64,000 bases of DNA, from assembly GCA_000002445.1 (NCBI GenBank), contig CH464491.1:4032001-4096000 (forward strand), read 5' to 3'. Under the pieces are notes generated by a model. The model made no database searches. It had not been told where the DNA came from and saw nothing but the letters and a program-made list of their open reading frames with translations. The first letter of the stretch is position 1; each line of letters starts with the position of its first letter. Below, in pieces: positions 4,129 to 38,631 of the stretch. The position numbers and the translations under genes were made by a program. The DNA is from Trypanosoma brucei. Its lineage: Eukaryota.

Positions 4129-4235
4129 GCACTTAAACCCCACGGGCGTCCACTCCTGCACCTCCTCAGGCTGGAAGGCGCGTGAAGCACATGAGCGCCT
4201 TCGGAGGGTGACGAACCGCCAACGCGGCCATACAC

Positions 4236-17295: not shown

Positions 17296-18112
17296 TTTCC
17301 TTTTTCTGTTTGACGGCGACGATAAGTGTAGGGGGAGGTGGCACCTTGGAGGAACCGCCGCTACGACGCTCTCCTGTCTGCTTCCCCTTCTCGGAGAAAA
17401 GAAAAACGATTACCCAGCTAAGGTGTCCGATACTATTGAGAAAAGTGGTGCAGGGTGAGTTTAAGAAGTCACTTTAAACAACAAACTGTATTGATAACAA
17501 CAACACAAATAAACTAGGATGGTGTCGCACTGGAGGTTAGTCACCGTCACTAATGTGCCAAATACAAATGCCGTAGCAGTCTACTACACTTATTAATGCT
17601 CGTTTCGTTAAGCGTGCCAAATCCATGCGATAACCCCCACCACCTCGCCGAAACAGCCCCTCAATGACCGTTATCCGCCGCTTGAAGCACCGTGGGAGAG
17701 CTCGAACAACCCTCTTCTTCGTTGCTGCTGCCTTGACGACATTCACCAGGGCGACTCTGCATCTCCTTTTGTGCGCCCAACAGAACTTGAGTAAAAGGAC
17801 TCAAGTGACTAATTACTGTGCATGTTTTTCCGGGCCCTGGCGTAGCCGCTTCTGAGGTTTGCAGTTGAGGTGGACATAATCCAAGGCGACACGCCTCCTC
17901 CTCCTTCCCACGACAATCAGAAAAGGGACTGGAAGGGGATGAAACACGTGCCCATCGTGGGGGAGAGGGTGACGACTCAAAAATACCTGCAGCGACCTCC
18001 TTAGGTCACTTAACGCAGAGATATGTGGGAGTCAGGCGACATTTCCAGCGACACCGAATAACGTCTAAATTAGCATGGTGTCTTTAATACGAAAAATGTT
18101 TACGCCCGACTG

Positions 18113-20359
18113 TTAAGACTTCGGAAAAGCCATTCCAACAAATTGCCCATCTTCTGTCCACTGTTTTTTTGTTTTCTGTGCCTCGTAGTACCTCTTCGCC
18201 TCCATCCGACGTTTGTTCAGGGACTTTAACTTCCCCTTAACATACTCCTGCTGCTTCTCTTCCACGGAGCTGCTTGGGAGTGAGACACTCGGCACCGCTG
18301 ATAGGGCAAAGCTCCGCGCCAGTCCCTCCAAGTCTAGCCGGTGAACGTTGAATATGTTTTGAAGGAGGTGACTCTGGTATGCGCCCACGTGAGCTCGGAA
18401 CGCACTTACGGAACTCTTCGCCACGATGGGATCCAACTGCAGTACGTGTTCCAACTTCATCTGGATGGGGGGGAGCTTGGCTGGCATTGGGTACTTTTCA
18501 AGTGAAATACCAAACTTTGAGAGGTAACGCACAAAGCCCGCCTCCTCAGGAGTCAGAAACAGTAACGCATTACCGACATTACCAGCGCGAGCTGTGCGCC
18601 CAATGCGATGCACGTATTCTGTGGGGTCAAGAGGGGGATCGTACTGCAGAATCCACTCCACATCCGGAATATCTAAACCGCGAGCGGCAACGTCGGTACA
18701 AAGCAGCACGCCGGTTGTCCATTCATTGAACGCTTGAAATGCCGCCACGCGCTGGCGGTGCTTCATTTGTCCATGCAGCATTATCACTTCATTATGGAAC
18801 CCAACGGATCCCAACATTTGAAAGTGAAATATAGTGCTGGCCACCGTAGAGCAGAACACCATCGCCTTCGATGTGCGGGCAACGCGCTTGACAAACGCGT
18901 ACAAGCAGAGTAAGCGTTCATGCACAGGGGTAATGTGGCAGAACTGTCGAAGAGTGTCCGGAATGGGTTTGATGTCACCTCCCGCCTCATTGCCACCAGT
19001 GTCTGACGCTCGCCCTCTTTTAAGCTGGTCATCAACATCCGGATCATCATAAGAGCAGTACGGTGGAAAGGTGGCAGATGCAGCATCAACACAACCCGCA
19101 GCTACCGCAGAATCAAAAGCTTCGGTACCTAATTGTACCGGAATCGGGGCACTGCCTGTTGTCGTGATGAAGAGTGGCTTGCGAGAAAGCGAAAGCCGGG
19201 CCAACTCCCCAATAGACTTCGAGTTAGTTGCTGAAAACAAATACGTCTGACGGGAGCGCGGCAGTCGCTGAACAATGGCATCAAGGCTTCTCTGAAAACC
19301 GTCGGCCAGCATTCGGTCTGCTTCGTCCAGAACGAGAGCGCGTAGCCGGGAGAGATCCCACCCCGAGCAATGCTGAACATGGTCATGTATACGTCCCGGC
19401 GTTCCAACCACTATGGAAACGCCTGAGTTAAGTTGCCGCCGTTCCTCTGACACTTTTGTACCCCCAGTAATGAGGTGTACGGAAAACGCAGCAATATCAC
19501 TAGAAATGTGTTGACATATCCCCCTCAGCACATCATGTGTTTGTACGCACAGCTCTTTGGTGGGGGAAAGCATTAAACTGTACGTGACATTCGGCCGCTT
19601 ACTTACGAGACCGATGATGGAATGAAGCACCGGCACACAGAAGGCTAGTGTTTTCCCTGAACCAGTCTGCGCCTGACCGAGGAGATCGTAGCCCTGAAGG
19701 GCATAGGGTATAACTCGCTCCTGAATGGGTGTCATTCGGCAAAATCCCTCCTGCTGAAGTGCTTGAACAACGTTTTCATTAACCCCAATAAGCGGGTGGT
19801 TAAATCGTGCACCAGTCTCAACCTTCTTTCGTACCCTACGAACTCTGGCTTCATCATCCAAAACTTCAGTGATGTTGCTAAGTCTCGTACCTGCCTTCGC
19901 ACCCCCAGTGTTGAAAAGGGTCTGGAAATCCTCTTCATTGTCAAAATGATGCAACAGCAACTTATCCGTCTCAGAAGCAGTGTCTTTCTGTCCTTCCCTG
20001 CTCCTTGTCTTTCGAAGATGTGTTGTGCGGCGATTGGCGTGTTCTTCTGCGAGGCGGTCGAGATACTCCGTGTCTTGCATGTTGTACAATTCTGTTTTCT
20101 TAATAAGCAACTTACCGTGAGGACCTACCGGTGGGCGAAACGGGCCACTTCCCATCACCATTACATCATCGGCGCCGGAGTCGACTTCTTCCTCCCCTTC
20201 TTCCACGTACTCGTTGTCCAATCCTGCCTTGCCATTGGCAGCTTTTGCCTCTCGCTCCCGTTGGCGCTTCCTACGACCCTTGATGCCCATTTGGTTGCGA
20301 CACCCCCGCACTTTACACACGTTTCCCTTGTGTGTTTGATATTTCAATGCGGTATGCAC
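18113..20359 (-). CDS. ATP-dependent DEAD-box RNA helicase, DDX10/Dbp4-like (ribosome biogenesis type).
   Basis: Q motif FCRMTPIQ, motif I AQTGSGKT, Ia PTKELC, II VLDEAD, III SAT and VI HRIGRTARAG. YLFSATNSKSIGELARLSL resembles the Dbp4/DDX10 signature. An alternative start is Met24 (ATG at 20290). Confidence 0.8.
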   Translation of the reverse strand: MHTALKYQTHKGNVCKVRGCRNQMGIKGRRKRQREREAKAANGKAGLDNEYVEEGEEEVDSGADDVMVMGSGPFRPPVGPHGKLLIKKTELYNMQDTEYLDRLAEEHANRRTTHLRKTRSREGQKDTASETDKLLLHHFDNEEDFQTLFNTGGAKAGTRLSNITEVLDDEARVRRVRKKVETGARFNHPLIGVNENVVQALQQEGFCRMTPIQERVIPYALQGYDLLGQAQTGSGKTLAFCVPVLHSIIGLVSKRPNVTYSLMLSPTKELCVQTHDVLRGICQHISSDIAAFSVHLITGGTKVSEERRQLNSGVSIVVGTPGRIHDHVQHCSGWDLSRLRALVLDEADRMLADGFQRSLDAIVQRLPRSRQTYLFSATNSKSIGELARLSLSRKPLFITTTGSAPIPVQLGTEAFDSAVAAGCVDAASATFPPYCSYDDPDVDDQLKRGRASDTGGNEAGGDIKPIPDTLRQFCHITPVHERLLCLYAFVKRVARTSKAMVFCSTVASTIFHFQMLGSVGFHNEVIMLHGQMKHRQRVAAFQAFNEWTTGVLLCTDVAARGLDIPDVEWILQYDPPLDPTEYVHRIGRTARAGNVGNALLFLTPEEAGFVRYLSKFGISLEKYPMPAKLPPIQMKLEHVLQLDPIVAKSSVSAFRAHVGAYQSHLLQNIFNVHRLDLEGLARSFALSAVPSVSLPSSSVEEKQQEYVKGKLKSLNKRRMEAKRYYEAQKTKKQWTEDGQFVGMAFPKS

Positions 20360-20667
20360 TTTACCGCCCTACCTGCCCCAGTAGGCCTAACCTCATTATT
20401 GCGAATGTTGCAAGTGAGTGGATGGATCAAGGGAAAGAAAAATGCACGTAACAACATACAAGTAGAGGTCGTAAAGACTAAATTTATCCAATCACTAATT
20501 ACTACATCCATTTATGCGCCTGTCTGTATGGCTCTCGCGAAACAAGTATCTATGAACACCCCATGTGAAGAAATCAGCAGTATATCCACGCAACCACCAT
20601 CCACACTTCCCGTGGAAAGCACGCAATCCCTACAAGATCTCGTTGTCACACACCAACCCTAACGTAA

Positions 20668-22665
20668 TCAACAGGATGCCAGGTTGCTCCGACACGCAGT
20701 TACCGTAGCGTTTGCGTTAGAAGCGCTACGGCCACCGATATCCCTTGAAGAGCACTTGCCCTTATCATTTGCCTGGACCACGAAGAGGCGCGGATACAGT
20801 ACTCCAGTTTTCATGGCCATTCCTTTCCGCAATAACCCTGCTGACTGCTTGCGTGACCCCTCCAACACAACAGCATTCCATAGGAACCAACCTACACGAC
20901 ACTTGACAGCACATATGTCCTCCGCCGACTTGGGGAAGTAAGCGCTGCCTGCCTCAATAAAGCTTTCCGTGGTGGGGGCGTTTGAGCCACAGTCGCCACA
21001 GTCATGCAAGTTCCGAAAATGCGTGACAGTCCCCTGCTCCAATCGCTGAAGCTCCCATTGGACAGCGCTGGGGGTGCCTTGAGGGTAAACAGCATCCGTG
21101 AAGGTACACCTAACGAGAAGACGGTGGCGGAAATGGTCATGAGACCCAGCATCCTCGGCATCGTCTACTTTTTCTGACGGTTTGCTGCTGGCCACTGTGA
21201 TGTCTTTTCGCTGAACTGCGTTACCTCCCTCGTCCGTCCCACCGCCGCCATGCCCATCTCTCTGCTGTTCCTTCGGAAGTCCCTCATTGCACCTTTCTCC
21301 GCTGAGTTGATCACCGCGGTGCCACACCGTTTGTTTCTCTAGTTCGCATACCGTACGGGACAACAGCCGTTTTATTAGTTGTCCTCGCACGGGGGTCGCA
21401 CCCTTGTCTAACGTGGCGTTGATGGTTGGACTGAAGTACTCACCCCCAACAAACGCTCTCCAGATTCCGTAGGCCTCGTCCGCGGTGACTTTGTGCCAGT
21501 AAATAACGGCTGATTCTCTTTTCAGAAGAGGCGCATGCCACGGATCTTTTGTGAAGTGGAGGTCGTGCCCTTGCTTCCACGCCGCATTCCACAATGCATT
21601 GAATGTCCGTGGCCAATCACAGTAGCCACTGGCTACTGCTGGGCCGAGATGAAGACATCCTGGAGGTGAGCTGAGTGCAGGCGCAACAGGGACCTTACCA
21701 AATAGGCACTCGCAGAGCGCTTCCGCGCCCTGCTCAGTCACGCTGGGAAAGTACTCTCGGATGGTCATCTCCGGTGGTATTGGTATAGTTCGCTGAAGCA
21801 ACACATCTCCGCCATCCATAAACATCCCTCTCGGTGGAAGTTTGATAACGCTAACACCACCCTTGTCGTCCCCCCGAAGCAGCGGAGCAAAGATAGGACT
21901 TGCGCCACGATACCGCGGCAACAAAGAGGGATGCAAATTGACGGTGAATCTCAATTTCTCAAGTAGTTTGTTCGGCAGGAAGTACCGAAACGACACCACG
22001 ACTGCTACATCAAACATCTCCAGGGGTCGCCCCGCGATGTGATCGACTTGCGCCACACCGCTAATGACAGGCGTTGGCAAATGCTTGGGATGCAGCAGGT
22101 ATTCCAGTGTTTTACTTTTCGCCATAGACGTCGGGTGGTCAACAGGCACTAAGGGTATGCCGTGCTCTACACAGTATCGCGCCACGGGGTATTGACGCCT
22201 GTACTGTTTGAACACTGTGAAAGGATCGGCAGGAAGGAAGGGACAAACAACCACAAGTTGGGATTTCTCGCTACCGGTTGCCGCGCTGCACCCTTTTTCC
22301 TGAAGGGGACGAGCATCCATGATTAGCTGAAGGCGGTTGTGAAGAGCCTTCAAAGCTACTAGCGAGACAATATCACCACCGAAGAAAATGATGGAAGGGG
22401 GTTTGGACATTCCGCAAACAGTAAAAGCACAGTTCGGCGTACCCCTCGTTTTATCGCCATTGCCGGTGATCGTGACCTGCTCGACACATCCCACCATAGT
22501 GGAGGGGGCGGGTGGATCGGTGGTGCTGCTTCTCGATCGACGATTTACCAGAAAGGAAGAAATGTGGCTCCAGAAACAAGCTCTTGCCACACTATGTCCA
22601 CACCTCGATATGCACTGCCGCATGCGTGAAGGCACTGATCCGACGCCTGTTGCCGCCTTCCACAC
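20668..22665 (-). CDS. Methionyl-tRNA formyltransferase, enlarged kinetoplastid-type (probably mitochondrial).
   Basis: Formyltransferase core IIFFGGDIVSLVALKAL and NLHPSLLPRYRGASPIFAPLLRGD (bacterial Fmt has NVHASLLPRWRGAAPI). 665 aa against about 310 to 390 aa elsewhere. The exact start is uncertain. Confidence 0.7.
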   Translation of the reverse strand: MWKAATGVGSVPSRMRQCISRCGHSVARACFWSHISSFLVNRRSRSSTTDPPAPSTMVGCVEQVTITGNGDKTRGTPNCAFTVCGMSKPPSIIFFGGDIVSLVALKALHNRLQLIMDARPLQEKGCSAATGSEKSQLVVVCPFLPADPFTVFKQYRRQYPVARYCVEHGIPLVPVDHPTSMAKSKTLEYLLHPKHLPTPVISGVAQVDHIAGRPLEMFDVAVVVSFRYFLPNKLLEKLRFTVNLHPSLLPRYRGASPIFAPLLRGDDKGGVSVIKLPPRGMFMDGGDVLLQRTIPIPPEMTIREYFPSVTEQGAEALCECLFGKVPVAPALSSPPGCLHLGPAVASGYCDWPRTFNALWNAAWKQGHDLHFTKDPWHAPLLKRESAVIYWHKVTADEAYGIWRAFVGGEYFSPTINATLDKGATPVRGQLIKRLLSRTVCELEKQTVWHRGDQLSGERCNEGLPKEQQRDGHGGGGTDEGGNAVQRKDITVASSKPSEKVDDAEDAGSHDHFRHRLLVRCTFTDAVYPQGTPSAVQWELQRLEQGTVTHFRNLHDCGDCGSNAPTTESFIEAGSAYFPKSAEDICAVKCRVGWFLWNAVVLEGSRKQSAGLLRKGMAMKTGVLYPRLFVVQANDKGKCSSRDIGGRSASNANATVTACRSNLASC

Positions 22666-23024
22666 CTTTCTCGGTAGAATTCAGTAGTTAAAAAAACAGC
22701 GCACGGAATTAGGTGGAATTATCATGAAAGTGCGCCACAGCTGCACTGTTTTCCCTCTTCAGATAAGGCTGAAGTGTTGGCCAACCCCTACGCTATAACA
22801 ATAACAACATAAAGCAAGCGGAACGCATTAGGCGAAAAGGTGGTGGTGACCACATTCTCACATTTACCGAACAGCGAGCTTGCTAACAAAGATATAGGGC
22901 CGTCTCGGTTCCGGTGCAAGCGGGACACAACCCACCTTTCGATCACGGCCGCCCGCAGCGGCGATGGAAAAGTGGTTGGTCACTTTCCTACCCACATCAA
23001 CACGAGAAAATGAAATATGATTAC

Positions 23025-23110
23025 TTAATAATAATAATAATATAAAAATAATAATATAATAATATAATAATAATAACGACAATAATGATTGTAATAATTG
23101 TGGTAATAAA
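23025..23110. repeat. AT-rich (AAT/ATA)n low-complexity block.
   Basis: ttaataataataataatataaaaataataatataataatataataataataacgacaataatgattgtaataattgtggtaataa. Intergenic. Confidence 0.9.
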
Positions 23111-23235
23111 ATGAAAAGAGGTAGCACAAAATACTCCCTTCTTTGATAATTGAAAAACCTGGGTATGCACAAGAGCACACACCGACGCTCGCGTCCCGAC
23201 GCGAAGAAAGCGAACAGAGAAACAAAACGGAGTTA

Positions 23236-23865
23236 TTAAGCTTTTTCTTCGGCAGCACCGTCCCCCTCGTCCGCTTTGCCCTCGTTTTCTTCATCGGAAT
23301 CGTCTGCATCGGACAACTTGCCATCCTTCTTAGCCAACTCCCACCACGATGTCTCTTCAGCCTTTGCCAGTCGGATCACAATCTGCCCACTCGGGTCCTT
23401 GACTTTGTAGCTGCTTTCTTTGCTCTTTATTGCCTTTGCCAAACAAAGAACAAGTTGTTTCCTTCGCTGCGTTGCGACATCCTTCGAGGTCTGCACATTC
23501 GCAATGTACGACACTGTCAAACGGCGTTTTCCGAATTCCACCTGTAGCGTGTCTTCCACCATTGTTTCTTTTTCATCCAGTTTTGTGTCAATGTATACCG
23601 TAACATTCTTCTTACCGTCACACCAGCTGTGCTTCGTGATCGGATAACTTGCTGTGGAAGCTGGCAACACCGATGGGTCGGACTTCTTCAGCAAAACAGG
23701 TTTCGGCATAGGCGCAACATCGCCTACCTTCGCTCGTTCTTTCTCGTGGTTATGCCAGTAATAATAGGAGTTAGCTTGCTTCTTCTTAGCTGCGGAGTCG
23801 TGCTGCTCATTTTGGGTAGGTGGAATGGCTTCAGTGCCAGCCACTGCCTCCGTATCGGCCATCAC
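23236..23865 (-). CDS. CS-domain (p23/HSP20-like fold) co-chaperone-like protein, CacyBP/SIP- or Sgt1-like.
   Basis: 209 aa. ITKHSWCDGKKNVTVYIDT resembles the CS-domain start (YGWDQ...V.I.I). Acidic C-terminal tail SDADDSDEENEGKADEGD. Confidence 0.45.
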   Translation of the reverse strand: MMADTEAVAGTEAIPPTQNEQHDSAAKKKQANSYYYWHNHEKERAKVGDVAPMPKPVLLKKSDPSVLPASTASYPITKHSWCDGKKNVTVYIDTKLDEKETMVEDTLQVEFGKRRLTVSYIANVQTSKDVATQRRKQLVLCLAKAIKSKESSYKVKDPSGQIVIRLAKAEETSWWELAKKDGKLSDADDSDEENEGKADEGDGAAEEKA

Positions 23866-24136
23866 CTACTCAGATTACTTCTTAGACTTCACGCACACAA
23901 CAGCTATACTAAGTACGTTGAAGGTTGCAATGTAAAAGGTGAGGAACTCGGTTTAGAACAATATGATTAGAGAAATTAGGGGCAAAAACTCAACGGGTGT
24001 TCATGCAAACAAAATAACAATGATCATAATCGCAACGTAACACAACTCTCGTCCCGACGGCAAAACCTTAGCAACACCAGTGTGTGCAAAAACTGTTTAC
24101 CCCGCCCAATCACTCCAATTTGGGGAAACAGAAGCA

Positions 24137-26293
24137 CTACCAGTCATCCCACTCCTCCCCCTCATCATCAACTAGTATATCTGCCTTGGCTTTCACAATG
24201 CGTGATTTACCAACAACAGAGCCCGCATCCTGCCTATCAGAAGGAGCAGCTACACTCTCCAAGCGAGCAACAATACTAGGATTTTCGGAGTGGTCACTCT
24301 CGTCTTCATCAACGAAACTAACTGAGGTAGAAACTATATACTTTTGGTAGACAGTAAGATATTCATCTGCTTGCTTCCGGCAAACGATGCTCCTACAAAC
24401 TCCTTCCTCATGCTCAAGAACCGCAAAAAGCTTAGAAAAATGGGGTGAGTGCCCACAGCATGCTTCCTCCTCAGCTCTGAGACGTGCTTCCTCTTCAGCT
24501 CTGAGACGTGCTTCCTCCTCAGCTCTCAGACGTGCTTCCTCCTCAGCTCTGAGACGTGCTTCCTCTTCAGCTCTCAGACGTGCTTCCTCTTCAGCTCTCA
24601 GACGTGCTTCCTCTTCAGCTCTCAGACGTGCTTCCTCTTCAGCTCTCAGACGTGCTTCCTCTTCAGCTCTCAGACGTGCTTCCTCTTCAGCTCTCAGACG
24701 TGCTTCCTCTTCAGCTCTGAGACGTGCTTCCTCCTCAGCTCTGAGACGTGCTTCCTCTTCAGCTCTCAGACGTGCTTCCTCTTCAGCTCTCAGACGTGCT
24801 TCCTCCTCAGCTCTGAGACGTGCTTCCTCTTCAGCTCTGAGACGTGCTTCCTCTTCAGCTCTGAGACGTGCTTCCTCTTCAGCTCTCAGACGTGCTTCCT
24901 CTTCAGCTCTCAGACGTGCTTCCTCTTCAGCTCTGAGACGTGCTTCCTCTTCAGCTCTCAGACGTGCTTCCTCCTCAGCTCTGAGACGTGCTTCCTCTTC
25001 AGCTCTGAGACGTGCTTCCTCTTCAGCTCTCAGACGTGCTTCCTCTTCAGCTCTGAGACGTGCTTCCTCTTCAGCTCTGAGACGTGCTTCCTCCTCAGCT
25101 CTCAGACGTGCTTCCTCTTCAGCTCTCAGACGTGCTTCCTCTTCAGCTCTCAGACGTGCTTCCTCTTCAGCTCTCAGACGTGCTTCCTCTTCAGCTCTCA
25201 GACGTGCTTCCTCTTCAGCTCTGAGACGTGCTTCCTCCTCAGCTCTGAGACGTGCTTCCTCTTCAGCTCTCAGACGTGCTTCCTCTTCAGCTCTCAGACG
25301 TGCTTCCTCTTCAGCTCTCAGGTGTGTCTCTTCCTCGGAGTTATCTGACGTCTTGCAAATCCTAATAAGATGCTCTTTACCATCGTGTTGTCTCATTTTC
25401 CCTTTCTTAGCAGGTGTGTCACTTTCGTTAATTCGAGGATGGAGTTTGCCGCTGCTGGTGCTTATTTTATTTGTGCATTCATTTTGTACGTATTCTCCTG
25501 TGTGAACTCTGCTTTCCTGTGTGCATTGAGCGTGTAGCAAGCTACTGTTTTTGTTTCCTGTGGGTTGAGCCTCTGATCCTATAATGCGATGCTTCGCGGT
25601 CTTATCGTTATTCTGGTCGTGCTGATGTGCGAACTCGCTAGGGATGTCGTTGCCCACTTGGTTAATAAGGTCGTACTTTTCCTCTCTCAACAGCGTTCCA
25701 ATCTTTTTTACAGTTCCCATATCCGCTGTACATGTTTCCCAAATGCTGTTTATGCGCTGTTGAAGATGAACGATGTTCTCTACATTTATCAACCCAGGTT
25801 GCACTTTGTACTCCTCGAAGATCAATTCACACTTGCGGAGACGCTGATCCACGGCATCTTCCCACCAGGTGTAGACGCTGAGAAAGTCACTTGTATGCGT
25901 TATTTTTTCCTCTAGGCTTAATTGAAGGAGGAACTGCGCCTCTCCGTGGATACGTTTGGAAGTGAGAGTTATAAGACTGACAGACTCCGTAATGTATCGA
26001 AACAATTCTTCTGGTTCCAGAGATGTACGCTTTTCTTCCGCAAGACATAAAAGTGGTGGCGGTTTTTCATATTCGCCAGCCAGTTCGGCACTGCCAGCGC
26101 CAGAGTCGAGTACAACAGGGGATGATGTGAGTTTGTTCATCCAACCGACGACGTGCTCCTCGAGGAGGGAAAACCCCGAGCTCATTGCTGCACTTCGTTG
26201 CTGTTTCTGTTCAGGTGCAGCGGCGAGCTCGTCTCGCGTTGGGGCAACCGTGCGCCGAGCCGCGTTCTTTATGTCTATTAAAAAGTTCCACAT
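24137..26293 (-). CDS. Repeat protein with about 36 tandem EEEARLRA octads (candidate ER/K single alpha-helix spacer) flanked by unique N- and C-terminal domains.
   Basis: 718-aa ORF. The central part is (EEEARLRA)n encoded by a 24-bp repeat. About 330 aa of unique N-terminal sequence and about 100 aa of unique C-terminal sequence. Confidence 0.7.
24455..25325. repeat. 24-bp tandem repeat (gcttcctcttcagctctcagacgt and variants), about 36 copies, coding.
   Basis: Visible periodicity. Units vary only at two positions (ctc/ctt and cag/gag on the plus strand). On the minus strand these are synonymous Leu (ctg/ctc) and Glu (gaa/gag) codon changes. The translated repeat is invariant. Confidence 0.9.
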
Positions 26294-26830
26294 GATATAG
26301 AAGTGACGGAAGGAAGTCTCGTGCTAGTGGACGACGGGTAATTTTCTCGTTCTCTAAGCAAACACGAATTCCCTGCCGTAGATGTACGCGAGCGCTCAGC
26401 CCACAACGTTGTGCGGGGAGCGTGTCTTCTTACCCTTTTTTTTTAGCAGAGGACCGAGGGAAAGGAGAGGGGGGGGGGCGAGAAAGCGAATAAAAATTGG
26501 GACAGTATGTGGAATTCATGAATGCTCATGTATACCCCAGAGCACGGAGAATGTAGAACATAGACAAGTGGTCTTTCCGTCTCTCCATCCGTTCGCGGAA
26601 TTTGATACAAATTGGCGTTAAGAATGTAACCTTCAGAAAAGGGTGGTGGTGGTGGTGGTGATGTAAGGAAAAAGCGGCCGCGAGCCCACGCGCTCCATTG
26701 AATTGGATAAACGATATGTGCGAGGCTACACGAAAGGGGAGCTAAAGGGAAACTAATAAAACAGCGACCGCACAACAACTTGTTGTGGAAATGAAAGATT
26801 GGTGGTCTTAAAAAGTTCTCACCACTGCGG

Positions 26831-27682
26831 TTAAGCCGGGTACATATTGTCCTTGAAAAACCCATCTGGTCTGTACAATGGATGAATACGCGTCCCACCA
26901 ACCATCGTACTGAATTTCCCCCATGGGAATTCCCCGGACGGTTGCTCTAGAGTTGTCGGCATAGGCGGACCCGTACGCAAGTGCGGCAGCGCGTAGTATC
27001 GCTCCATTGTTGTTGTTCTTAATATTCCTCGCTCGTGTGCTGCCTTCCTATAGGCTTTCTTTTTATTCTGTAGCACGATATCTTCCGCAAGCATTACGAC
27101 GTGCTGCAACAGGCCGTGTGGAACTACACCCATTTCCTCTTCTCCCCACTCCAACAGTTCCGACGTGGCATCGCAAGCCTGTTGAATAGTGCGCAGTCCC
27201 GTGCGCTCCTCCACCACTTTCAAGTGTCTTTCAATTTCCTTTCGCGACCACGCCCTACTTGTGTACTGATGAATGAAGGGAGCCATGAAGCTTAGCGGAA
27301 AGTGACTGGGTAGGCCGTACTCCTGTCCTACCTCCGCGTAGTAGTTCCAGAGAGGAACACCCTCATTCGCTCCCGTCACAGCAGCCGAAAATGTACGTCT
27401 GCAACTCAACTCCTGATGCTGCCGCACAGGGTCGTCATTCCAACGCGCCCACGGCCAATGACGGTATGCTCCGCGTCGTCGAAGCCGGTGGTACCATTCC
27501 ACTCCAGTACGCGGGTCCCACGTGTTGCCGTACTCATCAGGTGACTTGTTAGCGAGTGGTGAGCGGGCGTGGGCAAGTTTCGGTGGGAGGTACCAAGCGC
27601 GGTGTCGACGGTGGGCGTACACCATAACACGGTTCTCATAGCCCTTTGCACGAGACCCAAGGGCCGGAAAGGTCGGACGCAT
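26831..27682 (-). CDS. Hypothetical protein, 283 aa, Trp/Arg-rich.
   Basis: Minus-strand ORF co-oriented with the cluster. No recognisable domain. The overlapping out-of-frame ORF 27406..27984 is judged spurious. Confidence 0.4.
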   Translation of the reverse strand: MRPTFPALGSRAKGYENRVMVYAHRRHRAWYLPPKLAHARSPLANKSPDEYGNTWDPRTGVEWYHRLRRRGAYRHWPWARWNDDPVRQHQELSCRRTFSAAVTGANEGVPLWNYYAEVGQEYGLPSHFPLSFMAPFIHQYTSRAWSRKEIERHLKVVEERTGLRTIQQACDATSELLEWGEEEMGVVPHGLLQHVVMLAEDIVLQNKKKAYRKAAHERGILRTTTMERYYALPHLRTGPPMPTTLEQPSGEFPWGKFSTMVGGTRIHPLYRPDGFFKDNMYPA

Positions 27683-28398
27683 TGCGAAACTGCAATGATG
27701 CTTGCACTATTTACCCTGGCGTGTGGAAAGGTCCAGTTTATTGTATCAGCTGTTGCCACCCGCTGATTCGCTTGCAGTGCAAAAGACAGAACCACATTTA
27801 AGCAAGGAAACGAAAGGAAAGAAGTGATGTTTGAAGTGCAAAAGAGGATATGTTGGCCCGCGAAGGGCACTGCGATAAGATATGCACCACACATATATCT
27901 ATCCAGGTCCGCGTGCGGCCGTATGTCGCGTATCATCCCTTCACCAGGAAGGTTGAATAAAAGTTGATGCATATATTGGACCACATATTTGTTATTGTAA
28001 TTGCCGGTTTGGTAGCTGCATTAACAAGCCGATTCATAGAAAAAAAAACAAAAAAAGTTTTTTTTTTAAAAAAGTAAACCAATAGTGAACAAGACAGGGA
28101 GAAAAAAAAAGCTTCTTGCGGACGTAAGAGGGAAGTGGTTTAGCAACAAAAAAGCCCAAACTAGAATAGCTATGAAAAAAAATAATAATCAGTGAAACAA
28201 AGAAAGCTGACCATGAGAACCTCTTTTCTCTTTTGCCCACTTTTGTGAGACACAGAAGCAAAAAGGCAACGTTGTGACAAGGAAGCGCACCATCAGCAGC
28301 GCCACTGCAATAGATGCAAGGGTTCCATCCCAATGCTGACGCCTCTTCAGCTGCGTAACTGTAAAAATTGAAACGAATGAGGATGGATTAAAATACCT

Positions 28399-29268
28399 TC
28401 AACTCAGCTCGCGTTGCTCTGCACGCCACAAAGTACGGCGTGGAAGCCGCGGCCTGATTATCGTGAGATCACAAGAAATGGACGACGGCCGCGGAGTCGC
28501 TACAGCTGCCGCCGAAGGTCTGAAGGCAGCGGAATGCGCCTCCAGTTGCTCATCGTCGAAAGTGATAACCTTCCGCTTCCGCTTTCCCAATGTGTCATTC
28601 GCATCTTTGCCAACATTAAGCTCTACTCGAGCTGCAGAGACATGTCTCGGCTCTGGAACCGCACCCGCTGCTTCGTCGCCAGTGTTCGACACGGCGGCTT
28701 CAGCGCATTTGAAGTGAACAACAAACGAATGTCTGAACCCTTTCTTGGAGTCTCCCCATCCATCCCCAATGCTTGATGGGCTTTGGTTTTGCTCACAGCA
28801 CAGGTGGTGGTGTTTGATCGCTTCCTCAATTTTCCTTCTTAGGCTCAAGGCAGCGTCTCGGAGCTTCGCTGGGGATATAATTTCGTACGAGGACCGCACT
28901 GTTTTTTTCACGGCAGACACCGCTGGATGAGGCGGCAACTCCGAGCGAAGAATGTCTTCAATTTCTCGGGTTAACGCCTCCCGTGAGCTTGCAAGTGCTT
29001 CTACTGCACCAACACACCGGTGTCGCTGCTCCTCCAATGTGCTTTTCTTCACAGAAACCTCCCTTGAGGCTTCTTCATGCTGCTCCTGTAGCTCGCGCAT
29101 AGATTCCTGTGCTGTTTTTATCTCAACTTCCGCAGTGGCGATAAGAAGGCGAAGAGCCCTAATTTCTTCTTCCTCTGTGTTGGCCTTCAACTGCGCAGCG
29201 CAGAGCATGTCATAAATTCTCTCCACAGAATCAACTGAAGGGGAGGGGGACCGCTTGACCATACTCAC
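28399..29268 (-). CDS. Hypothetical coiled-coil protein, 289 aa.
   Basis: Charged, heptad-like segments (EEEIRALRLLIATAEVEIKTAQESMRELQEQHEEASREV). Co-oriented ORF. Confidence 0.45.
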   Translation of the reverse strand: MSMVKRSPSPSVDSVERIYDMLCAAQLKANTEEEEIRALRLLIATAEVEIKTAQESMRELQEQHEEASREVSVKKSTLEEQRHRCVGAVEALASSREALTREIEDILRSELPPHPAVSAVKKTVRSSYEIISPAKLRDAALSLRRKIEEAIKHHHLCCEQNQSPSSIGDGWGDSKKGFRHSFVVHFKCAEAAVSNTGDEAAGAVPEPRHVSAARVELNVGKDANDTLGKRKRKVITFDDEQLEAHSAAFRPSAAAVATPRPSSISCDLTIIRPRLPRRTLWRAEQRELS

Positions 29269-29641
29269 CTCCCTTTGCCTTGTGCAGTGACTTGCGTTTT
29301 GGTGACGATACGTACAAATGTAATAATACGATAAATGGTGCTGTAAAAATGGCAGAAAAAAAGAGAAAGTGGGGTTATGCTCATGTTAGTACTATACAGC
29401 GTCATCGGTCCGGGGGCAGAGTTGTATCAAAATAAAATTCTTGATACACCTTTTTGATGTCAAGTCAATTGTCAATGTCGCTTCCATCAAGAGTTACGCG
29501 CTTTCCTGCACCTTTCAAAACAAGCATCCACAATTCCGCCCACAGTTGTAGTTGACAAAGACGTGCGGGAGATGCTGGGAAGACAGCCACCCTAGATGAG
29601 CAAGGTAACAAATTACGCATTCCCCTCCCCCCCCTGTATAC

Positions 29642-31951
29642 TTAGGAAGTGGCATAGCGCCAAACGTCCTCCAAAATACACGCGGCAGCCTGATGAAAGA
29701 GGGAAAATGACCCACAGCTTCCTTTTGACTGCTGCTGCTGCTGCTGCTGAAGTGCGACCACCTCGGCCTCCCGCCCAACTTCATCACCTTCAAGCAGCAA
29801 CACTTCTTGTACCAGGGAGTCACGCGTGGTGCCTTTAATCAAATGGCGTCTAATGGTGTAGAACGCCGTCATTACGGATGCCTCATCTTCATCGCTATCC
29901 AATGTTGAGCAAGTCGCATCGCAAAAATCATCTCGCAAAACTGAAAGGGGGAAAACCGTCATCCTGGAGGTGAATACTGGTTTATCATCCTTCTGTCTCA
30001 TGTTTATTTGCGGTTTCTTCCGGAACAAAGAACAGCCACCAACCTTCTTTATTTCGTACTTTACCGAAGCACGTGGTCCACCTCCAAGGGAGGTGAGTCC
30101 TTGCAATACCTTGAGACAATCCACATGCACAGAACTGGTACCACCACCATTGTGGAAGTTGTGACTTAACGACGCCGTCTTCCCACGAATGGTACCGCCA
30201 TCAACCTTACCACCCACTTGTCCGCACAATGTGTTGTGCCAGGAATGTTGAAACCAGCCTACGCCATACCGTCTCGAGTTTACCACATCTCCGTCACCGT
30301 CATCATTGCATATCAGCGAGAAGAGGCAGTGGCAGCCCGCCCCACGAATCTTATTCCGCACATGAGCCTCTGCAACAACAATATGGCTTGCTGCCACGCA
30401 CCACATTATGTCAAGCGGAAGAGTAGTGACATCTCTATGCCATACAAACCCTCCAGAGCCAGCTTTCTTATAATTAAATGGCAGGCAGACGGAACAGCCA
30501 CAAGCGCAAGATGAGGGAGGAGCAGTTGCTTTAGTCGGTACCTCATCTTCACCTGCGGGTGCAGCACGGAGGTTCTCCGCTTCAGCGCGATTTATCTCCT
30601 GCAGTAATTCATGAAACCGCGAGGTTGGATGACTAACCTCCACACATAGTGCTAAATGCGATGCGAAAATATCAGTATTCCCTTGGGCTGGTCGGACAGC
30701 CGTGTGAACAGGCGCTAAGGTTTCTGTTTCCGCGCTGCCATGACCGCTGCCTTCCAAATACCTTATTGCGCCACCAGTTCTGACAACCGTCCTTGAAGTG
30801 GCGAGACGTTTCCTCACGAACTGAATAAATCGCTCGTGATCCATTACACCACCACTCCCTTGTGTCTCCACAACAAAACCAAGCACGCAACAGAGAGCGC
30901 TTCCAACGCTTGTAAGAACAACGTTAAAAGGAACGCTACCACCGCAGCACCGGAGAGAGATCTCGCGGACGTGAATAAGTTGCAGGGGATGTGGTGACCC
31001 GCTTTGCGTTTCGTCATATGGCCAACAACTTAGTTGTTCAACAGCCAAAGCAGCGATGAGGAAACGGTCTCTGTGGTCACTTTTGCCAAAGAATGAGGAT
31101 GAGGCACAAAGAAGACCACTTGCAGAGAAAAATGCAACAAAAGGCAGTGCATCACTGTCCGGGGCCCAAAGCTGTTCGCACGACTTCACCTCAATACTGT
31201 ACGTCGCCGCAAGTGATTGAGCAATGACCGCAAACAAACACTGACATGAGCATTGTGCAAGTCCTTCCAACAACCGTAGGCTCTTACGGTCAGCGGTTGG
31301 TAACGAGGATACGGGGGACTTGTATGTGCAGGGGCCCACACGACAAAAAAGGAAACTGATAGGCACAATATCCTGTGAAACGAAAAATAGGAGGGCCTTA
31401 CGCCGTGCCAATAGGCGCCGGCGAGCTACAGACTCTGCTTTGCTTTTTCCTTGTATTTTGCTATCTGTTGCCTCCCAAGCGACGACGCGCCGCTCAAGGC
31501 CATCGGTATCGGGTACATTTCCACCTGCAAGTCCGTCGTACTCCAAAACGTCCTTTCCAGCGTGAGCCATTCCATCACCGCGCGGATTCCCTTTATCAGT
31601 GGGTGACGAAGTCACAGAGAGTGCATCAAGTAGCATCTGCATCCCACTACCACTTGTGCGACAGAGGACGTCCAACACACAGTCAAGTGTGAGTTCCAGC
31701 TCCCCTTCCGTTACGGCTGTTCCACCAACTGCAATTGTCACATCGCCTAATTCACCACCCATTCTCTGCTGGTGTAGGAGAACCAGCATTTCCTCCGCAT
31801 GTTCGTCACTGGTGCTACGGAAACAGTGAAAAACGCGAGATGCGAGCGGCGCCTGAAATAACTGATCTATGTCACTTAAAAAAGGGAGAGGGCCGAGTGA
31901 TGGCGCGAAGAGCCGTCGGCCATCGCTCGACTGAAGGTGAATCCACGGCAT
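29642..31951 (-). CDS. Hypothetical protein, 769 aa, with a poly-Q run.
   Basis: Long co-oriented ORF. (CTG)n at 29733..29750 on the plus strand encodes QQQQQQ near the C-terminus. Confidence 0.55.
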   Translation of the reverse strand: MPWIHLQSSDGRRLFAPSLGPLPFLSDIDQLFQAPLASRVFHCFRSTSDEHAEEMLVLLHQQRMGGELGDVTIAVGGTAVTEGELELTLDCVLDVLCRTSGSGMQMLLDALSVTSSPTDKGNPRGDGMAHAGKDVLEYDGLAGGNVPDTDGLERRVVAWEATDSKIQGKSKAESVARRRLLARRKALLFFVSQDIVPISFLFCRVGPCTYKSPVSSLPTADRKSLRLLEGLAQCSCQCLFAVIAQSLAATYSIEVKSCEQLWAPDSDALPFVAFFSASGLLCASSSFFGKSDHRDRFLIAALAVEQLSCWPYDETQSGSPHPLQLIHVREISLRCCGGSVPFNVVLTSVGSALCCVLGFVVETQGSGGVMDHERFIQFVRKRLATSRTVVRTGGAIRYLEGSGHGSAETETLAPVHTAVRPAQGNTDIFASHLALCVEVSHPTSRFHELLQEINRAEAENLRAAPAGEDEVPTKATAPPSSCACGCSVCLPFNYKKAGSGGFVWHRDVTTLPLDIMWCVAASHIVVAEAHVRNKIRGAGCHCLFSLICNDDGDGDVVNSRRYGVGWFQHSWHNTLCGQVGGKVDGGTIRGKTASLSHNFHNGGGTSSVHVDCLKVLQGLTSLGGGPRASVKYEIKKVGGCSLFRKKPQINMRQKDDKPVFTSRMTVFPLSVLRDDFCDATCSTLDSDEDEASVMTAFYTIRRHLIKGTTRDSLVQEVLLLEGDEVGREAEVVALQQQQQQQSKGSCGSFSLFHQAAACILEDVWRYATS

Positions 31952-33106
31952 GTTAAAAAGTTAAAGCCGTTTTTCCGAGTTGCGGAACTCACCTATACCC
32001 GCCTACTTACGACCAAGGGGGAAAAAAATAACAAAAATATCAATGGAAAAATGATGCGGCTCAACCATTAACACGACCCAAAAACACAAGTATGAGTAAC
32101 AGAGGGAGGGTGAGTGAATATGAAAGAAAACAAACTGTAGAAGCGCCCGTAATGAAAGTAATTGAAAAAAAGAACATAACGGAATACAACCCTCCCCAAT
32201 GGGGATGGCTCTCCCCTGCCCCACCATACGCTACATAATAGTGCGATCTATTTTAGCTCCACTGCCGGTCACCCATAAACGACCAACCTTTCCCGCTATT
32301 GAGCGGGTGACGTAATGGTTTGACTTGCACGCACGCAGACGAATGCACTTAACTTAATACACGTGCATAACGTCATCCCCCTTCTTACATGGTCAAAACA
32401 GGGGGAAAACGCGGTCAAGAGAATAATGCGCGGAGGTGTAGAAGAACATTGCGATCAACTAGGAGTTAAAATAAGTGCAAAGAAATAAATAAAAGTAACC
32501 AAACGAACGAAACAAATTCAACTCGTGGCACGCTCGACTGCTGTAAATGCGTTCAGCGCACACCATCTTTTTTCCTCCTCCTCCTCCTCCCTTCCGAACG
32601 AACAAACAACTGTGCCATGTTTGTGACTGTCCGTCATTCAATCGCCGGTTTATCATCTCCGGTGCGGCGGTAGTCCACTGCTTTTTCGATGCCGAAACCA
32701 CCGACAAACTGTTGCTACTGTGTGGCGCCGTTGAGGCAGCAAAAAAAAAAAGTAGCACAAAACGCGCCGCTGCAAGCCCCCACGACACCCGTGCCGGAAC
32801 TTAATTACCCTCTCCCTCTACATATAAGCCCATCAAAAGTTTGCACGTAATGGAGGAGACGCACTTTCCAATGAATAAAAAAATTGTTGTCGCACAAAGA
32901 GGGAATGATTTTAAAAAAAGTCTAAGTCACCAAACAGCAGCCCCTAATGGAACGAACAACCTCGAAAGCACGATAAACAAACAAGAGCGGAAAGAAATAG
33001 GGGCTACATCTCCCACAATCAGCCACGGTTTGCGCTGTCAACCCAAACTCATTATATACCCATATACATATACAAAAATATAAACGATAATGAGATCCTT
33101 TTCGTT

Positions 33107-34483
33107 CTAATAGACGTATGGGATCAAGCGATAACGAACTATTCTATGGAATTTGTGCATATCTTCTGCACCATACTTTTCACGCATCTGCTCTTCGTCC
33201 CTCAATTGGCGGTGAATCAAAAGCAGAGCAAAATACACTGGCTGAAAGTATGGCAGTGGTTCCGTAAACCCCGTAAGTGCTGACCATGAAAGGGTCATAA
33301 GCCAATCCCCTACATAATTCGGATGGCGGCACACGCCCCAGTAGCCCGACACAATCAGCGATTTGCCGCTGGACGTATGCATAACCTTCAGCGCCGCATT
33401 CGCTGGATCTTTTGGATTTTGTCGAAAACGACTTTTTTGATTGTTTGAGCCACGAAACACAGCGTAGCCAACAAGCGCCACCGCAGCGCAAATGCCTACG
33501 TGCATGTAGCTCAGCTGCGAGGCATGATAAGCCAGGAACTTTGCTTTCAGTGTATAAGTGAAAGGTACCCACGCCAAATCGCCGAAGCACAGCATAAACC
33601 CAAAACCATCATGCACGATGTCCATCATGGTGAGGTTTCCCTCTTCATAAAGAAGCCCGTCCAACACATAGAAAGACTCTAGCAGGGCAACCACAATAAT
33701 GCTGGGCGAGCATGTACCGACCTCCATCGCTTTTGCCACAAATGCCCAATTCAGGACGCTCCAACCAATGAGACCGGGACGCAGTTCACACATAAACTTC
33801 CAGTCAAGCGAACCCGTACGTGGATTGAGCTCACGGCCAACCCAGAAATCGTATAAGTAGTTTCCAGTGTTTCCTCCGGGGGAAAACGACACCTGAGAAG
33901 AGCGGAAGGAAGCGACGTATAGCACGATGCTCATAAAAACAGAAATGATGATGGCAGCCACCATGAGTGGCATAAACATGTCAGCCAGCCAGGCTAGACG
34001 AATCACATCAGCGTAGTGCATACTACCCAAAATAGCATGTACAAGTGTGAACACATGCAACGCGTTGATATTGTACGTGAGACATGTTCCATCAGAGAGT
34101 TTCACACCCTTCACTTGCTTTCCAACCGGAGTAATGTAAAGAAGTGCATGAAATGCCATCCACAACAACTCGACACCAAGTGCCAGTACCAATCGCGGCA
34201 CTCCCACATCCAATGCCAACAATATCATTGCGGGAAGGTCCCATACATTATGCACACTACACGAATTTTCTGAGCACAAGACATTGAGACCAATAACTGT
34301 GAGCGGCAGAAGCACCACCATCCCAAGTGCTCCCAGAGGGCCTCCCCACTCGTAGGAGCGGTTTTTATTCGTCACTGGTGTTTTAGTTCTGGGAGTGACG
34401 GGACTCTTTTTAGTCCTCCCGGGCGTCCGAGGTGCAGGCGATGCGGAGCGAGATTTTGTACCCTTGCGGCTCCGTGGCGGCAT
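33107..34483 (-). CDS. Sterol reductase of the ERG4/ERG24 family (sterol C-14 or C-24(28) reductase) with a basic SP/TP-rich N-terminal extension.
   Basis: C-terminal family signature GYWGVCRHPNYVGDWLMTLSWSALTGF...LLIHRQLRDEEQMREKYGAEDMHKFHRIVRYRLIPYVY. Multiple transmembrane segments. N-terminus MPPRSRKGTKSRSASPAPRTPGRTKKSPVTPRTKTPVTNKNRS. Confidence 0.8.
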   Translation of the reverse strand: MPPRSRKGTKSRSASPAPRTPGRTKKSPVTPRTKTPVTNKNRSYEWGGPLGALGMVVLLPLTVIGLNVLCSENSCSVHNVWDLPAMILLALDVGVPRLVLALGVELLWMAFHALLYITPVGKQVKGVKLSDGTCLTYNINALHVFTLVHAILGSMHYADVIRLAWLADMFMPLMVAAIIISVFMSIVLYVASFRSSQVSFSPGGNTGNYLYDFWVGRELNPRTGSLDWKFMCELRPGLIGWSVLNWAFVAKAMEVGTCSPSIIVVALLESFYVLDGLLYEEGNLTMMDIVHDGFGFMLCFGDLAWVPFTYTLKAKFLAYHASQLSYMHVGICAAVALVGYAVFRGSNNQKSRFRQNPKDPANAALKVMHTSSGKSLIVSGYWGVCRHPNYVGDWLMTLSWSALTGFTEPLPYFQPVYFALLLIHRQLRDEEQMREKYGAEDMHKFHRIVRYRLIPYVY

Positions 34484-34793
34484 TTGATGCTAATCCTTGC
34501 GTTACTTTTTCTGCAACGAATAACAAACAATATGGGGAGAAATGTATTTTTTTTCTTTTAAATGTCCAGTTTGATACTCTGTCAGTGTGTTCCTACGTAG
34601 TACAGTCGTTTTCCTTTTAAATAAACGGGCTCGGTACCTATGACTAAGTCAAAATAGTGGGGTGATTAAGCGGTACGGAATATTACAAACCTTAGCGAGG
34701 AACAAACCCATTCGTGGGATTATACCAGCGCATCCATCACTTTTCCTTCCGTCCTTTTGGGTGGATAAAGCAGACAAGGAGATGCTCCTCTCA

Positions 34794-35273
34794 CTACTCA
34801 TGGGAAACATCGGTGTCCGAAACGACTAACATAAGTCCTACCACCACAAGAAGCGCTCCCGCCAACCACGTGATTGTCACCACTTCATGAAACACAAAAA
34901 AACCGAGGATGGCGCTCACCCCAAAGTTGGCTCCGGTGTTAACAACTTGACAAACGGGTGTAGGTCCGCAAGACAGCGCCCTCACATACCACCTCCACAT
35001 CTGTGCAGTGCAGTAGCCATTCGCCGCCAGTGATACGGCGCGGAGCCCAAGAACCAACGCAGCAGCCAACGAATTACTCCTGGCGTCGATACCTACCAAC
35101 GCAAAAAAAAAACTCACAACTCCAGAAAGAGACGTGGCACTGCCGCTGTTATCGTGCGCAAACGCAAGCTTTCCAACAACTGCCGAGAGGGCACCGAACG
35201 TACCTGCTAGCAGGGAATACAACAAATACTGGCGCCCGCCCACAGTCCCCTCTTTCCTACTCTGCTTTGACAT
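34794..35273 (-). CDS. Small multi-pass membrane protein (159 aa; 4 predicted TM segments, TMEM42/EamA-half-like).
   Basis: Hydrophobic segments LLYSLLAGTFGALSAVVGKLAF, VVSFFFALVGI, AAALVLGLRAVSLAANGY and AILGFFVFHEVVTITWLAGALLVVVGLMLVV. Confidence 0.45.
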   Translation of the reverse strand: MSKQSRKEGTVGGRQYLLYSLLAGTFGALSAVVGKLAFAHDNSGSATSLSGVVSFFFALVGIDARSNSLAAALVLGLRAVSLAANGYCTAQMWRWYVRALSCGPTPVCQVVNTGANFGVSAILGFFVFHEVVTITWLAGALLVVVGLMLVVSDTDVSHE

Positions 35274-36622: not shown

Positions 36623-36670
36623 ATATTTAATATATAACTCGGGCAGTGACCGAGTTATATATTAAATATA
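36623..36670. repeat. Perfect 20-bp inverted repeat with 8-nt loop (hairpin).
   Basis: atatttaatatataactcgg / gcagtgac / ccgagttatatattaaatat. The arms are exact reverse complements. Lies in a 2.3-kb gene-free interval. Confidence 0.9.
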
Positions 36671-37548: not shown

Positions 37549-37567
37549 TATATATATATATATATAT
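37549..37567. repeat. (TA)9-10 microsatellite.
   Basis: ttatatatatatatatatatatt read directly. Confidence 0.9.
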
Positions 37568-37592
37568 TTTTTCGGTTGTACTTATTTTCGCG

Positions 37593-38519: not shown

Positions 38520-38574
38520 AATCAGAGTACAGTAGTTTAAAATAATATCAATAACTATTACCTATGTTCCTTCG

Positions 38575-38631
38575 TTTACACTAACCTCACCACAATTTAC
38601 GAAAACAAGACAGGAGGAAAAAGAAAAACAA
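38575..38631 (-). promoter_or_regulatory. Candidate polypyrimidine tract plus AG trans-splice acceptor for the cytochrome b5 reductase mRNA.
   Basis: On the minus strand: tgtttttctttttcctcctgtcttgttttc, followed by gtaaattgtggtgAGgttAG about 60 to 110 nt upstream of the ATG at 38519. Confidence 0.35.

Follow-up and report, generated by a model that had tools for sequence, protein, structure and literature searches.

The octad repeat of Tb-291, a trypanosomatid membrane-associated protein, as a candidate single alpha-helix between conserved ends

A 64,000-nucleotide stretch of the Trypanosoma brucei genome (assembly GCA_000002445.1, contig CH464491.1, positions 4,032,001 to 4,096,000; hereafter the window, with coordinates counted from its first letter) carries on its minus strand the gene for Tb-291, a protein that contains an array of the octad EEEARLRA. 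This array is probably a monomeric single alpha-helix (SAH, also called an ER/K domain), as predicted from its charge pattern and from structure models, and we lean slightly toward a reading in which the octads form a long monomeric helix that serves as a semiflexible spacer in a tether or adaptor of vesicular transport. The strongest line for the single helix is comparative, in that orthologs keep a repeat of the same helix-forming character in the same place. Here we document the identity of the gene, its architecture, the periodicities of its repeat, the pattern of its conservation, and the dynamics of its array, beginning from a first-pass annotation, made from the letters of the window, that had singled out the repeat as a candidate SAH spacer.

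Gene identity and domain architecture

On the minus strand, the ATG-initiated open reading frame (ORF) 24137..26293 forms a single exon and encodes 718 amino acids (aa) followed by a stop codon. Over all 718 aa its product matches, at 100% identity, XP_829607.1 (EAN80495.1, UniProt Q381N6), which is annotated as "Tb-291 membrane associated protein, putative" in T. brucei brucei TREU927. By sequence identity the locus is Tb-291 itself, and the gene and its EARLRAEE repeat, which is the EEEARLRA octad in a shifted register, have been known since 1994. Neither is new, and the gain as a discovery is therefore small; the present contribution lies in mapping the domains, in describing the conserved termini, and in following the array across species and strains. 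The "EARLRAEE repeat" of Tb-291/Tb-292 is credited to Lee, Russell, D'Alesandro, and Van der Ploeg (J Biol Chem 1994, 269:8408; PMID 8132566), a publication cited in PMC5619722 and PMC1538635. The string EEEARLRA was not found in the searchable literature, where the published form is EARLRAEE, and no discussion of the repeat as a single alpha-helix was found in the searchable literature on Tb-291.

PMC5619722 describes Tb-291 as membrane associated, with a possible role in vesicular transport. The same paper identifies its Leishmania infantum ortholog as the serodiagnostic antigen Lci8 (LinJ.32.2420), which was cloned by screening with sera from visceral leishmaniasis patients and consists of 331 N-terminal aa, 61 identical 10-aa repeats, and 242 C-terminal aa. 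The layouts of Lci8 and Tb-291 are alike, with an N-terminal region, identical short repeats drawn from E/R/A/Q, and a C-terminal region. The ortholog of Tb-292, Lci12, has a shorter N-terminal region and transmembrane segments at its C terminus (PMC5619722). In other genomes the orthologs of Tb-291 are annotated as "vesicular transport-associated repeat protein" or "membrane associated protein-like protein."

We take the minus strand to be the coding strand because the other long ORFs of the window lie on it and because the M1-W2 start and the N- and C-terminal regions are conserved. Plus-strand coding across the same interval (ORFs 24387..25505 and 24449..25348, which read as ASSSALRR and CFLFSS repeats) was rejected as a mirror artifact of the repeat. 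A Pfam search of full-length Tb-291 returned only low-complexity artifacts, namely DUF2345 over the repeat and Cornifin below the cutoff, and both identities were rejected. The architecture given below was drawn from the ortholog alignment together with two AlphaFold2 runs.

24137..26293, minus strand: Tb-291 coding sequence, 718 aa, inside a minus-strand polycistronic unit
26246..26293, minus strand: N-terminal amphipathic helix, aa 1-16, a candidate peripheral membrane anchor
25652..26062, minus strand: conserved folded domain, aa 78-214, a predicted antiparallel three-helix bundle
25337..25642, minus strand: linker, aa 218-319, rich in S/K/H/N/T/Q, nonconserved and probably disordered
24461..25336, minus strand: octad repeat region, aa 320-611, composed of EEETHLRA, 35 x EEEARLRA, and EEEA
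aa 320-327, minus strand: degenerate first unit, EEETHLRA
24473..25312, minus strand: 35 perfect EEEARLRA units, aa 328-607, at a spacing of exactly 8 residues
aa 608-611, minus strand: truncated last unit, EEEA
24326..24430, minus strand: short C-terminal helix, aa 622-656, consensus LE.EEgv.R..v.R.aq..y...
24140..24325, minus strand: acidic tail, aa 657-718, probably disordered, with a predicted local distance difference test score (pLDDT) of <50
24140..24157, minus strand: C-terminal EEWDDW-COOH, conserved in the family and confirmed by translation

Both ends of the protein are conserved. Residues 1-16 have a hydrophobic moment of 0.43 to 0.59 in all 10 of 10 orthologs, M1, W2, and R13 are invariant across the aligned orthologs, and AlphaFold2 places a helix at aa 2-16 with low pLDDT. 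The three-helix bundle (helices at aa 94-123, 134-163, and 171-203) is predicted with confidence and carries the family signature LLxLSLEEQIAHTSDF...Y.WW...GRLLRDERYD. A weak hit (E 4.8e-06) matches aa 149-200 of the bundle at six places in a 1932-aa protein of the representative library, and this could represent either a repeated helical module or an artifact of composition. The linker that follows has a pLDDT of 29 to 47, and the orthologs are unalignable there. On the far side of the repeat, aa 622-656 are moderately conserved and modeled as a helix (pLDDT 49 to 60), and the 62-residue tail holds 17 D/E against 6 K/R. A terminal W(D/G)D(D)W following acidic residues was present in 6/6 full-length orthologs (from Trypanosoma, Leishmania, Porcisia, and Lotmaria), and an internal GW(G/D)DD..FEEV motif also occurs in most non-brucei orthologs. 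No transmembrane segment was found along Tb-291, and a transmembrane anchor was rejected on the basis of a maximum Kyte-Doolittle 19-residue window of only 0.68; any membrane association must therefore be peripheral.

Comparison of TREU927 with T. brucei equiperdum showed 7 differences among the 107 codons after the repeat (24140..24460), all of them nonsynonymous, and 6 synonymous plus 3 nonsynonymous differences among the 319 N-terminal codons. The terminal EEWDDW is the same in both strains. The differences in the tail may reflect relaxed or diversifying selection on that segment.

The octad and its charge lattice

By Tandem Repeats Finder, the interval 24461..25321 is a tandem array of a 24-bp unit (35.9 copies, 96% matches), in agreement with the "about 36 copies" of the first-pass annotation, which resolve into 35 perfect units and 2 partial ones. 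The octad consists only of Glu, Arg, Ala (25%), and Leu (12.5%), all of which are among the strongest helix formers on textbook propensity scales. Across the repeat region 61% of residues are charged (62.5% in the unit), 12% are hydrophobic, and 24% are Ala, and Pro and Gly are absent. On an ideal helix, residues four apart line up as two Glu/Arg ladders (E1/R5 and E3/R7), one Glu/Leu ladder (E2/L6), and one ladder made entirely of Ala (A4/A8). The i/i+4 scheme originally drawn for the octad is thus correct, with pairs E1-R5, E3-R7, R5-E1', and R7-E3' and no same-sign pair at i+4. Per residue, E-to-R and R-to-E pairs at i+4 each reach 0.23, for an opposite-charge total of 0.46 to 0.5. The lattice extends over ~292 aa, where a charged single helix is expected to show such pairing for more than ~30 residues.

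We scored this lattice with our own simplified i+3/i+4 and periodicity scores, on which the opposite-charge i+4 density of EEEARLRA is 0.5, compared with 0.2 for (EAAAK)n and 1.0 for E4K4, both established monomeric helix formers. Among the 1680 possible orderings of E3R2A2L, 17% give four i+4 salt bridges with no same-sign pair, and 4.3% attain the observed combined i+3/i+4 score. The order of the octad is near-optimal for salt bridging, yet it is not astronomically unlikely. The charge period of 8 residues also falls within the range of 6 to 9 residues that the SAH predictor FT_CHARGE looks for.

Charged single alpha-helices are known from the lever extensions of myosin VI and myosin X, from caldesmon, and from a linker in a Trichomonas Kelch-motif protein. 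The Tb-291 repeat resembles this class in its dense i/i+4 Glu-Arg pairs, its lack of a hydrophobic seam, its strong helix formers, and its spacer position. It differs in being a perfect, DNA-homogenized tandem repeat of 8 residues, whereas SAH and ER/K sequences are irregular and rich in E/K/R, and also in having Arg only, without Lys, together with 25% Ala, 12.5% Leu, and a net charge of -1 per unit. At 292 aa in Tb-291 and ~770 aa in Trypanosoma vivax, it is longer than the natural SAH examples familiar to us, which span 10 to 30 nm. A close counterpart of the octad lies in a Legionella Dot/Icm substrate (PDB 8hcy, chain C, 645-721) with ~10 units of EEEQRIKL, which share the charge pattern E1E2E3-x-R5-x-K/R7-x and have identical i+3/i+4 scores. 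The host protein is an unrelated bacterial effector and has Ile/Leu where Tb-291 has Leu/Ala, and its octads look like an independent invention of the same design.

Conservation of the repeat and variation in its length

An exhaustive HMMER scan of 1.84 billion representative proteins recovered Tb-291 itself and nine ortholog clusters, all within the Trypanosomatidae, and it contained no T. brucei paralog of the N-terminal domain. A profile search added only two further Leishmaniinae sequences, and a word-indexed protein search with the N-terminal 319 aa gave zero matches. A search with the repeat alone returned one 107-aa metagenomic fragment and did not recover Tb-292. The Tb-291 family is trypanosomatid specific and probably peripherally membrane associated. 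Synteny at the locus extends to T. b. equiperdum and Trypanosoma grayi, in both of which the upstream gene is followed by Tb-291, then the CS-domain gene, then the formyltransferase gene.

Throughout the aligned Trypanosomatidae the repeat sits between the same two conserved ends, and in every ortholog it stays rich in E/R/A(Q/L) and free of Pro and Gly over lengths of 130 to ~770 aa. The unit itself varies in sequence and, by genus, in length (8, 9, 10, or ~20 aa). It is EEEARRQA in T. grayi, EEE(E)ARRLA in Trypanosoma theileri, EEAE[AS]RRLA in Trypanosoma cruzi, EEEA[RK][RQ]RA in T. vivax, and EEQARLQREA along with longer E/Q/A/R/L forms in the Leishmaniinae. Leu is mostly lost in T. grayi, and T. 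vivax units contain 0% hydrophobic residues. A comparison of orthologs across Trypanosoma, the genus rightly guessed in the first-pass annotation, had been suggested to see whether repeat number varies while the motif persists, and both hold for repeat number and for the E/R/A-rich character, but the Leu of the motif is not kept.

The array has 36 copies in TREU927 and 38 in T. b. equiperdum. About 16 octads are present in T. grayi, where the short-read assembly may have collapsed the array, and a long-read assembly of T. vivax (GCA_021307395.1, L003 3836..6132) has 95.8 copies, or ~770 aa. The annotated T. vivax ortholog is a 470-aa "hypothetical protein" with terminal GSVLRRKQ repeats; these are the 24-bp array read out of frame after indels, and the gene model is without the true C terminus. 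In the Leishmaniinae the repeat spans 215 to 345 aa in the species sampled and 610 aa in L. infantum. If fully helical, the 292 residues of Tb-291 would extend ~44 nm at 0.15 nm per residue, close to the 43 nm first calculated, but the "rigid rod" that went with this figure overstates the stiffness. ER/K helices have a persistence length of ~15 nm, and because of this a 44-nm helix would be semiflexible and not a rigid rod. A molecular ruler is a poorer match to these lengths than a spacer or tether under loose constraint.

Homogenization and selection in the array

Among the 35 perfect units, only 2 of the 24 nucleotide columns vary and both variants are synonymous: column 3 is GAA in 28 units and GAG in 7, and column 18 is CTG in 20 and CTC in 15. 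These are exactly the Glu and Leu codon differences described in the first-pass annotation. All four combinations of the two columns are present (17/11/4/3). The remaining 22 columns, 6 of the 8 third-codon positions among them, do not vary from unit to unit, and invariance at these third positions means that the units are not old and independently evolving, since such units would have diverged. TREU927 and T. b. equiperdum arrange their unit types in wholly different orders once past the initial three or four units. Private to the latter are 7 units with GAG at E3 and 8 units in which GCA is replaced by TCA (Ala to Ser); one unit type is present only in TREU927, and each species carries a unit type of its own. 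The array is under concerted evolution.

Selection on the peptide is evident as well. The comparison of nonsynonymous with synonymous change among units that had been suggested as a check was run as pN/pS (the ratio of the nonsynonymous to the synonymous proportion of differences), and mean pairwise values were below 1 in 5/5 arrays: 0 in TREU927, 0.11 in T. b. equiperdum, 0.28 in T. grayi (pS 0.43), 0.40 in T. vivax, and 0.07 in Leishmania sp. Taken by themselves, the two variable synonymous sites seen in the window are weak support for selection; 18/72 single-base changes of the unit are synonymous, and two of two would be so by chance with a probability of (18/72)^2, or ~0.06. Invariance of the peptide, as claimed from the window, holds for 35/35 units there but does not extend to T. 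b. equiperdum, in which 8/37 units read EEESRLRA. Nonsynonymous variation among units of other isolates, which had been named as evidence that would speak against the SAH reading, therefore exists, and the Ala-to-Ser change is conservative for a helix. The original view that the pattern reflects purifying selection rather than homogenization is right about selection (pN/pS 0 to 0.40 over the five arrays) but not about homogenization, which the invariant columns and reshuffled units make plain. Both homogenization and selection on the peptide shape the array. We hypothesize that unequal crossing-over and gene conversion maintain its homogeneity, so that copy number and unit variants would change fast and selection would preserve the helix-forming E/R/A character.

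Weighing the single-helix spacer

The charge lattice, the absence of a heptad seam, the helix modeled by AlphaFold2, and the E/R/A-rich repeats of the orthologs together make the SAH candidate plausible. It is a reasonable reading that applies a well-known structural class and is contradicted by no test that we ran.

A number of observations weigh against a long monomeric spacer. AlphaFold2 models the array as two helices, aa 326-446 and 458-612 (pLDDT 86 to 94), and the break at aa 447-457 may indicate a modeled hairpin, although it is arbitrary in that it falls inside identical repeats; a helix prediction of this kind says nothing about monomer versus oligomer. The charged fraction (62.5% of the unit) is lower than in classical ER/K helices, whose E+K+R content is typically about three quarters or higher. 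Each octad has a net charge of about -1, for a total of -39 over the region, which could destabilize the helix at low ionic strength. In the Leishmaniinae the net salt-bridge score per residue is only 0.12 to 0.30, versus 0.62 to 1.0 in Trypanosoma. Array length varies about 6-fold among species (~16 to 96 units), a spread that sits poorly with a defined spacing function and is equally expected of a fast-evolving immunodominant repeat. The three-helix bundle found no diagnostic structural neighbor in a fold search, and Foldseek gave no match at E<=0.001 for the full-length model; a spectrin repeat, for comparison, is a three-helix bundle of ~106 residues that bears a family sequence signature and usually stands in tandem. 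Finally, anchoring to a membrane through the N terminus and the tether function itself are things that we infer only.

The length spread bears most directly on the possibility that the repeat is a fast-evolving, low-complexity polyampholyte or antigen with no length-dependent role, whether helical or not, and that function resides in the N- and C-terminal regions. We consider this rather unlikely. It would account for the wide range in copy number (36, 38, ~16, 95.8, and 61 x 10 aa), for units that differ between genera in both length and sequence, for the strong homogenization of the arrays, and for the cloning of Lci8 with patient sera. It accounts less well for a repeat that in every lineage remains rich in E/R/A(Q/L) and lacks Pro and Gly, that keeps its position between the same ends across the family, and whose units show pN/pS below 1 in every array compared, and a neutral insert would not be expected to retain a helix-forming salt-bridge pattern.

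Self-association of the repeat through its Ala stripe and Leu, as a parallel or antiparallel coiled coil or as a hairpin, would instead produce a golgin-like dimeric rod. The two long helices modeled by AlphaFold2 are consistent with a hairpin, Ala and Leu make up 37.5% of the unit with Ala strictly at i and i+4, and the long vesicle tethers that are known are coiled coils. The periodicities of the array nevertheless make such a rod decidedly improbable. Fourier power of Leu, of Leu+Ala, and of charge is 4.4 to 4.7 at periods 8, 4, and 2.67 and <=0.01 at 3.5, 3.6, and 3.67. Whichever of the seven registers is chosen, hydrophobic residues occupy 12% of the heptad a/d positions and charged residues ~62%, and the repeat has a hydrophobic moment of only 0.01. 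The first-pass annotation had judged the 8-residue spacing of Leu incompatible with a coiled-coil seam, and these values bear it out. At 100 degrees per residue, an apolar stripe of period 4.0 winds 10 degrees per residue and turns once per 36 residues, far steeper than any known supercoil. Leu is also dispensable among the orthologs, which argues against a seam or a conserved hydrophobic core, and parallel chains, each with a net charge of -39, would repel one another. A canonical coiled coil was rejected on the lack of power at 3.5 and 3.67, the charged a/d positions, and the loss of Leu in orthologs.

A possible role at the membrane

Tb-29 proteins are reportedly found on the cytoplasmic face of vesicles and tubules lying from the nucleus to the flagellar pocket. 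A peripheral-membrane tether is suggested for Tb-291 by its N-terminal amphipathic helix and three-helix bundle at one end and its acidic C-terminal EEW(D/G)D(D)W at the other. Met-hydrophobic N termini are substrates of NatC, and acetylated amphipathic N termini anchor Arl3/ARFRP1 and Grh1. We hypothesize that the amphipathic Met-Trp N terminus and the bundle engage either a membrane or one of its proteins and that the octads fold as one long monomeric helix stabilized by salt bridges. This helix would hold the C-terminal Trp-acidic peptide tens of nanometers from the membrane-bound end, where the acidic Trp motif could capture a partner, and Tb-291 would then act as a tether or adaptor that reaches out in vesicular transport.

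Acidic-flanked Trp motifs in disordered regions of Dsl1 and ArfGAP1/Gcs1 bind the mu-homology domain of delta-COP (PMC7145657, PMC4868844), and the review among these two sources notes that the Dsl1 lasso is confined to a subset of fungi. Like these coat-capturing tethers, Tb-291 is elongated and membrane associated and carries, in a strongly acidic disordered segment at its distal end, two Trp residues 2 to 3 positions apart. EEWDDW, which is WGDW or WDDDW in orthologs, fits the di-Trp, acidic, and disordered description of LIG_deltaCOP1_diTrp_1 as a resemblance of pattern, and the likeness to the Dsl1 and ArfGAP1 motifs is one of motif and not of homology. Other readers of acidic Trp motifs include the appendage or ear domains of adaptors, the Arp2/3 acidic-W motif, and the kinesin light chain W-acidic motif. 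By analogy these would fit the Tb-291 tail equally, and the link to delta-COP is a lead, not a result. In its most specific form, the proposal is of a kinetoplastid-specific class of monomeric vesicle tethers whose rod is a single alpha-helix and not a coiled coil. A Met-Trp helix (possibly N-terminally acetylated) and the bundle would sit on an endomembrane, and a helix of 40 to 115 nm would present a conserved acidic di-Trp C terminus that captures COPI (delta-COP) or an adaptor ear domain. We regard this form of the proposal as a long shot, the most doubtful of the readings given here.

Other features of the window

The window (1..64000) contains ~25 long, nonoverlapping ORFs, all on the minus strand and belonging to one polycistronic unit. 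Those in which we identified a product or a feature of note are as follows.

5978..9301, minus strand: EF-G-like GTPase
10414..17295, minus strand: second large repeat gene, a 2293-aa ORF 7 kb downstream of Tb-291 in the same transcription unit
18113..20359, minus strand: SPB4-like DEAD-box helicase
20668..22665, minus strand: formyltransferase-domain protein
23236..23865, minus strand: CS-domain protein
26831..27682, minus strand: 283-aa gene adjoining Tb-291 upstream (Q381N5, "hypothetical protein, conserved")
33107..34483, minus strand: sterol reductase ERG4/ERG24

Q381N5 has no Pfam match and carries the accession 6HIV_BM, which makes it a chain of a solved T. brucei structure, one that we take to be the mitochondrial ribosome. 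Within the second large repeat gene, the interval 11624..16275 holds 28.7 copies of a 162-bp (54-aa) unit at 99% identity, the unit containing LEIAMEEQRVRYTHEVESLRTELQNERERVQASEKVAQENHEGMEKLHREQL, and the units differ only by LLA/LST and A/V. The exact sequence of this 2293-aa protein is absent from the protein collection searched, and Pfam gave nothing significant for it. Two smaller repeats were also seen: a (TAA)n-like microsatellite of ~25 imperfect copies at 23026..23098, between the formyltransferase and CS-domain genes, and a 78-bp unit present 2.3 times at 73% identity (46196..46372), which encodes an acidic stretch near the C terminus of a 566-aa ORF (46115..47815, minus strand).

Implications

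Tb-291 and its Leishmania ortholog serve, or have been considered, as repeat antigens for serodiagnosis. If the single-helix reading is true, the family would contain very long natural helices made of a regular 8-residue unit, of 290 residues here and ~770 in T. vivax, and a Glu/Arg/Ala helix of 40 to 115 nm would be among the longest natural single helices. The orthologs would form a natural series relating helix length to tether reach, and the repeats could be of use as modular protein linkers. The Met-Trp N terminus, the three-helix bundle, and EEW(D/G)D(D)W provide handles on the function of a protein annotated as "vesicular transport-associated." Should the more specific tether also prove true, Tb-291 would supply in these organisms a function that the Dsl1 lasso or the golgins have in other eukaryotes.

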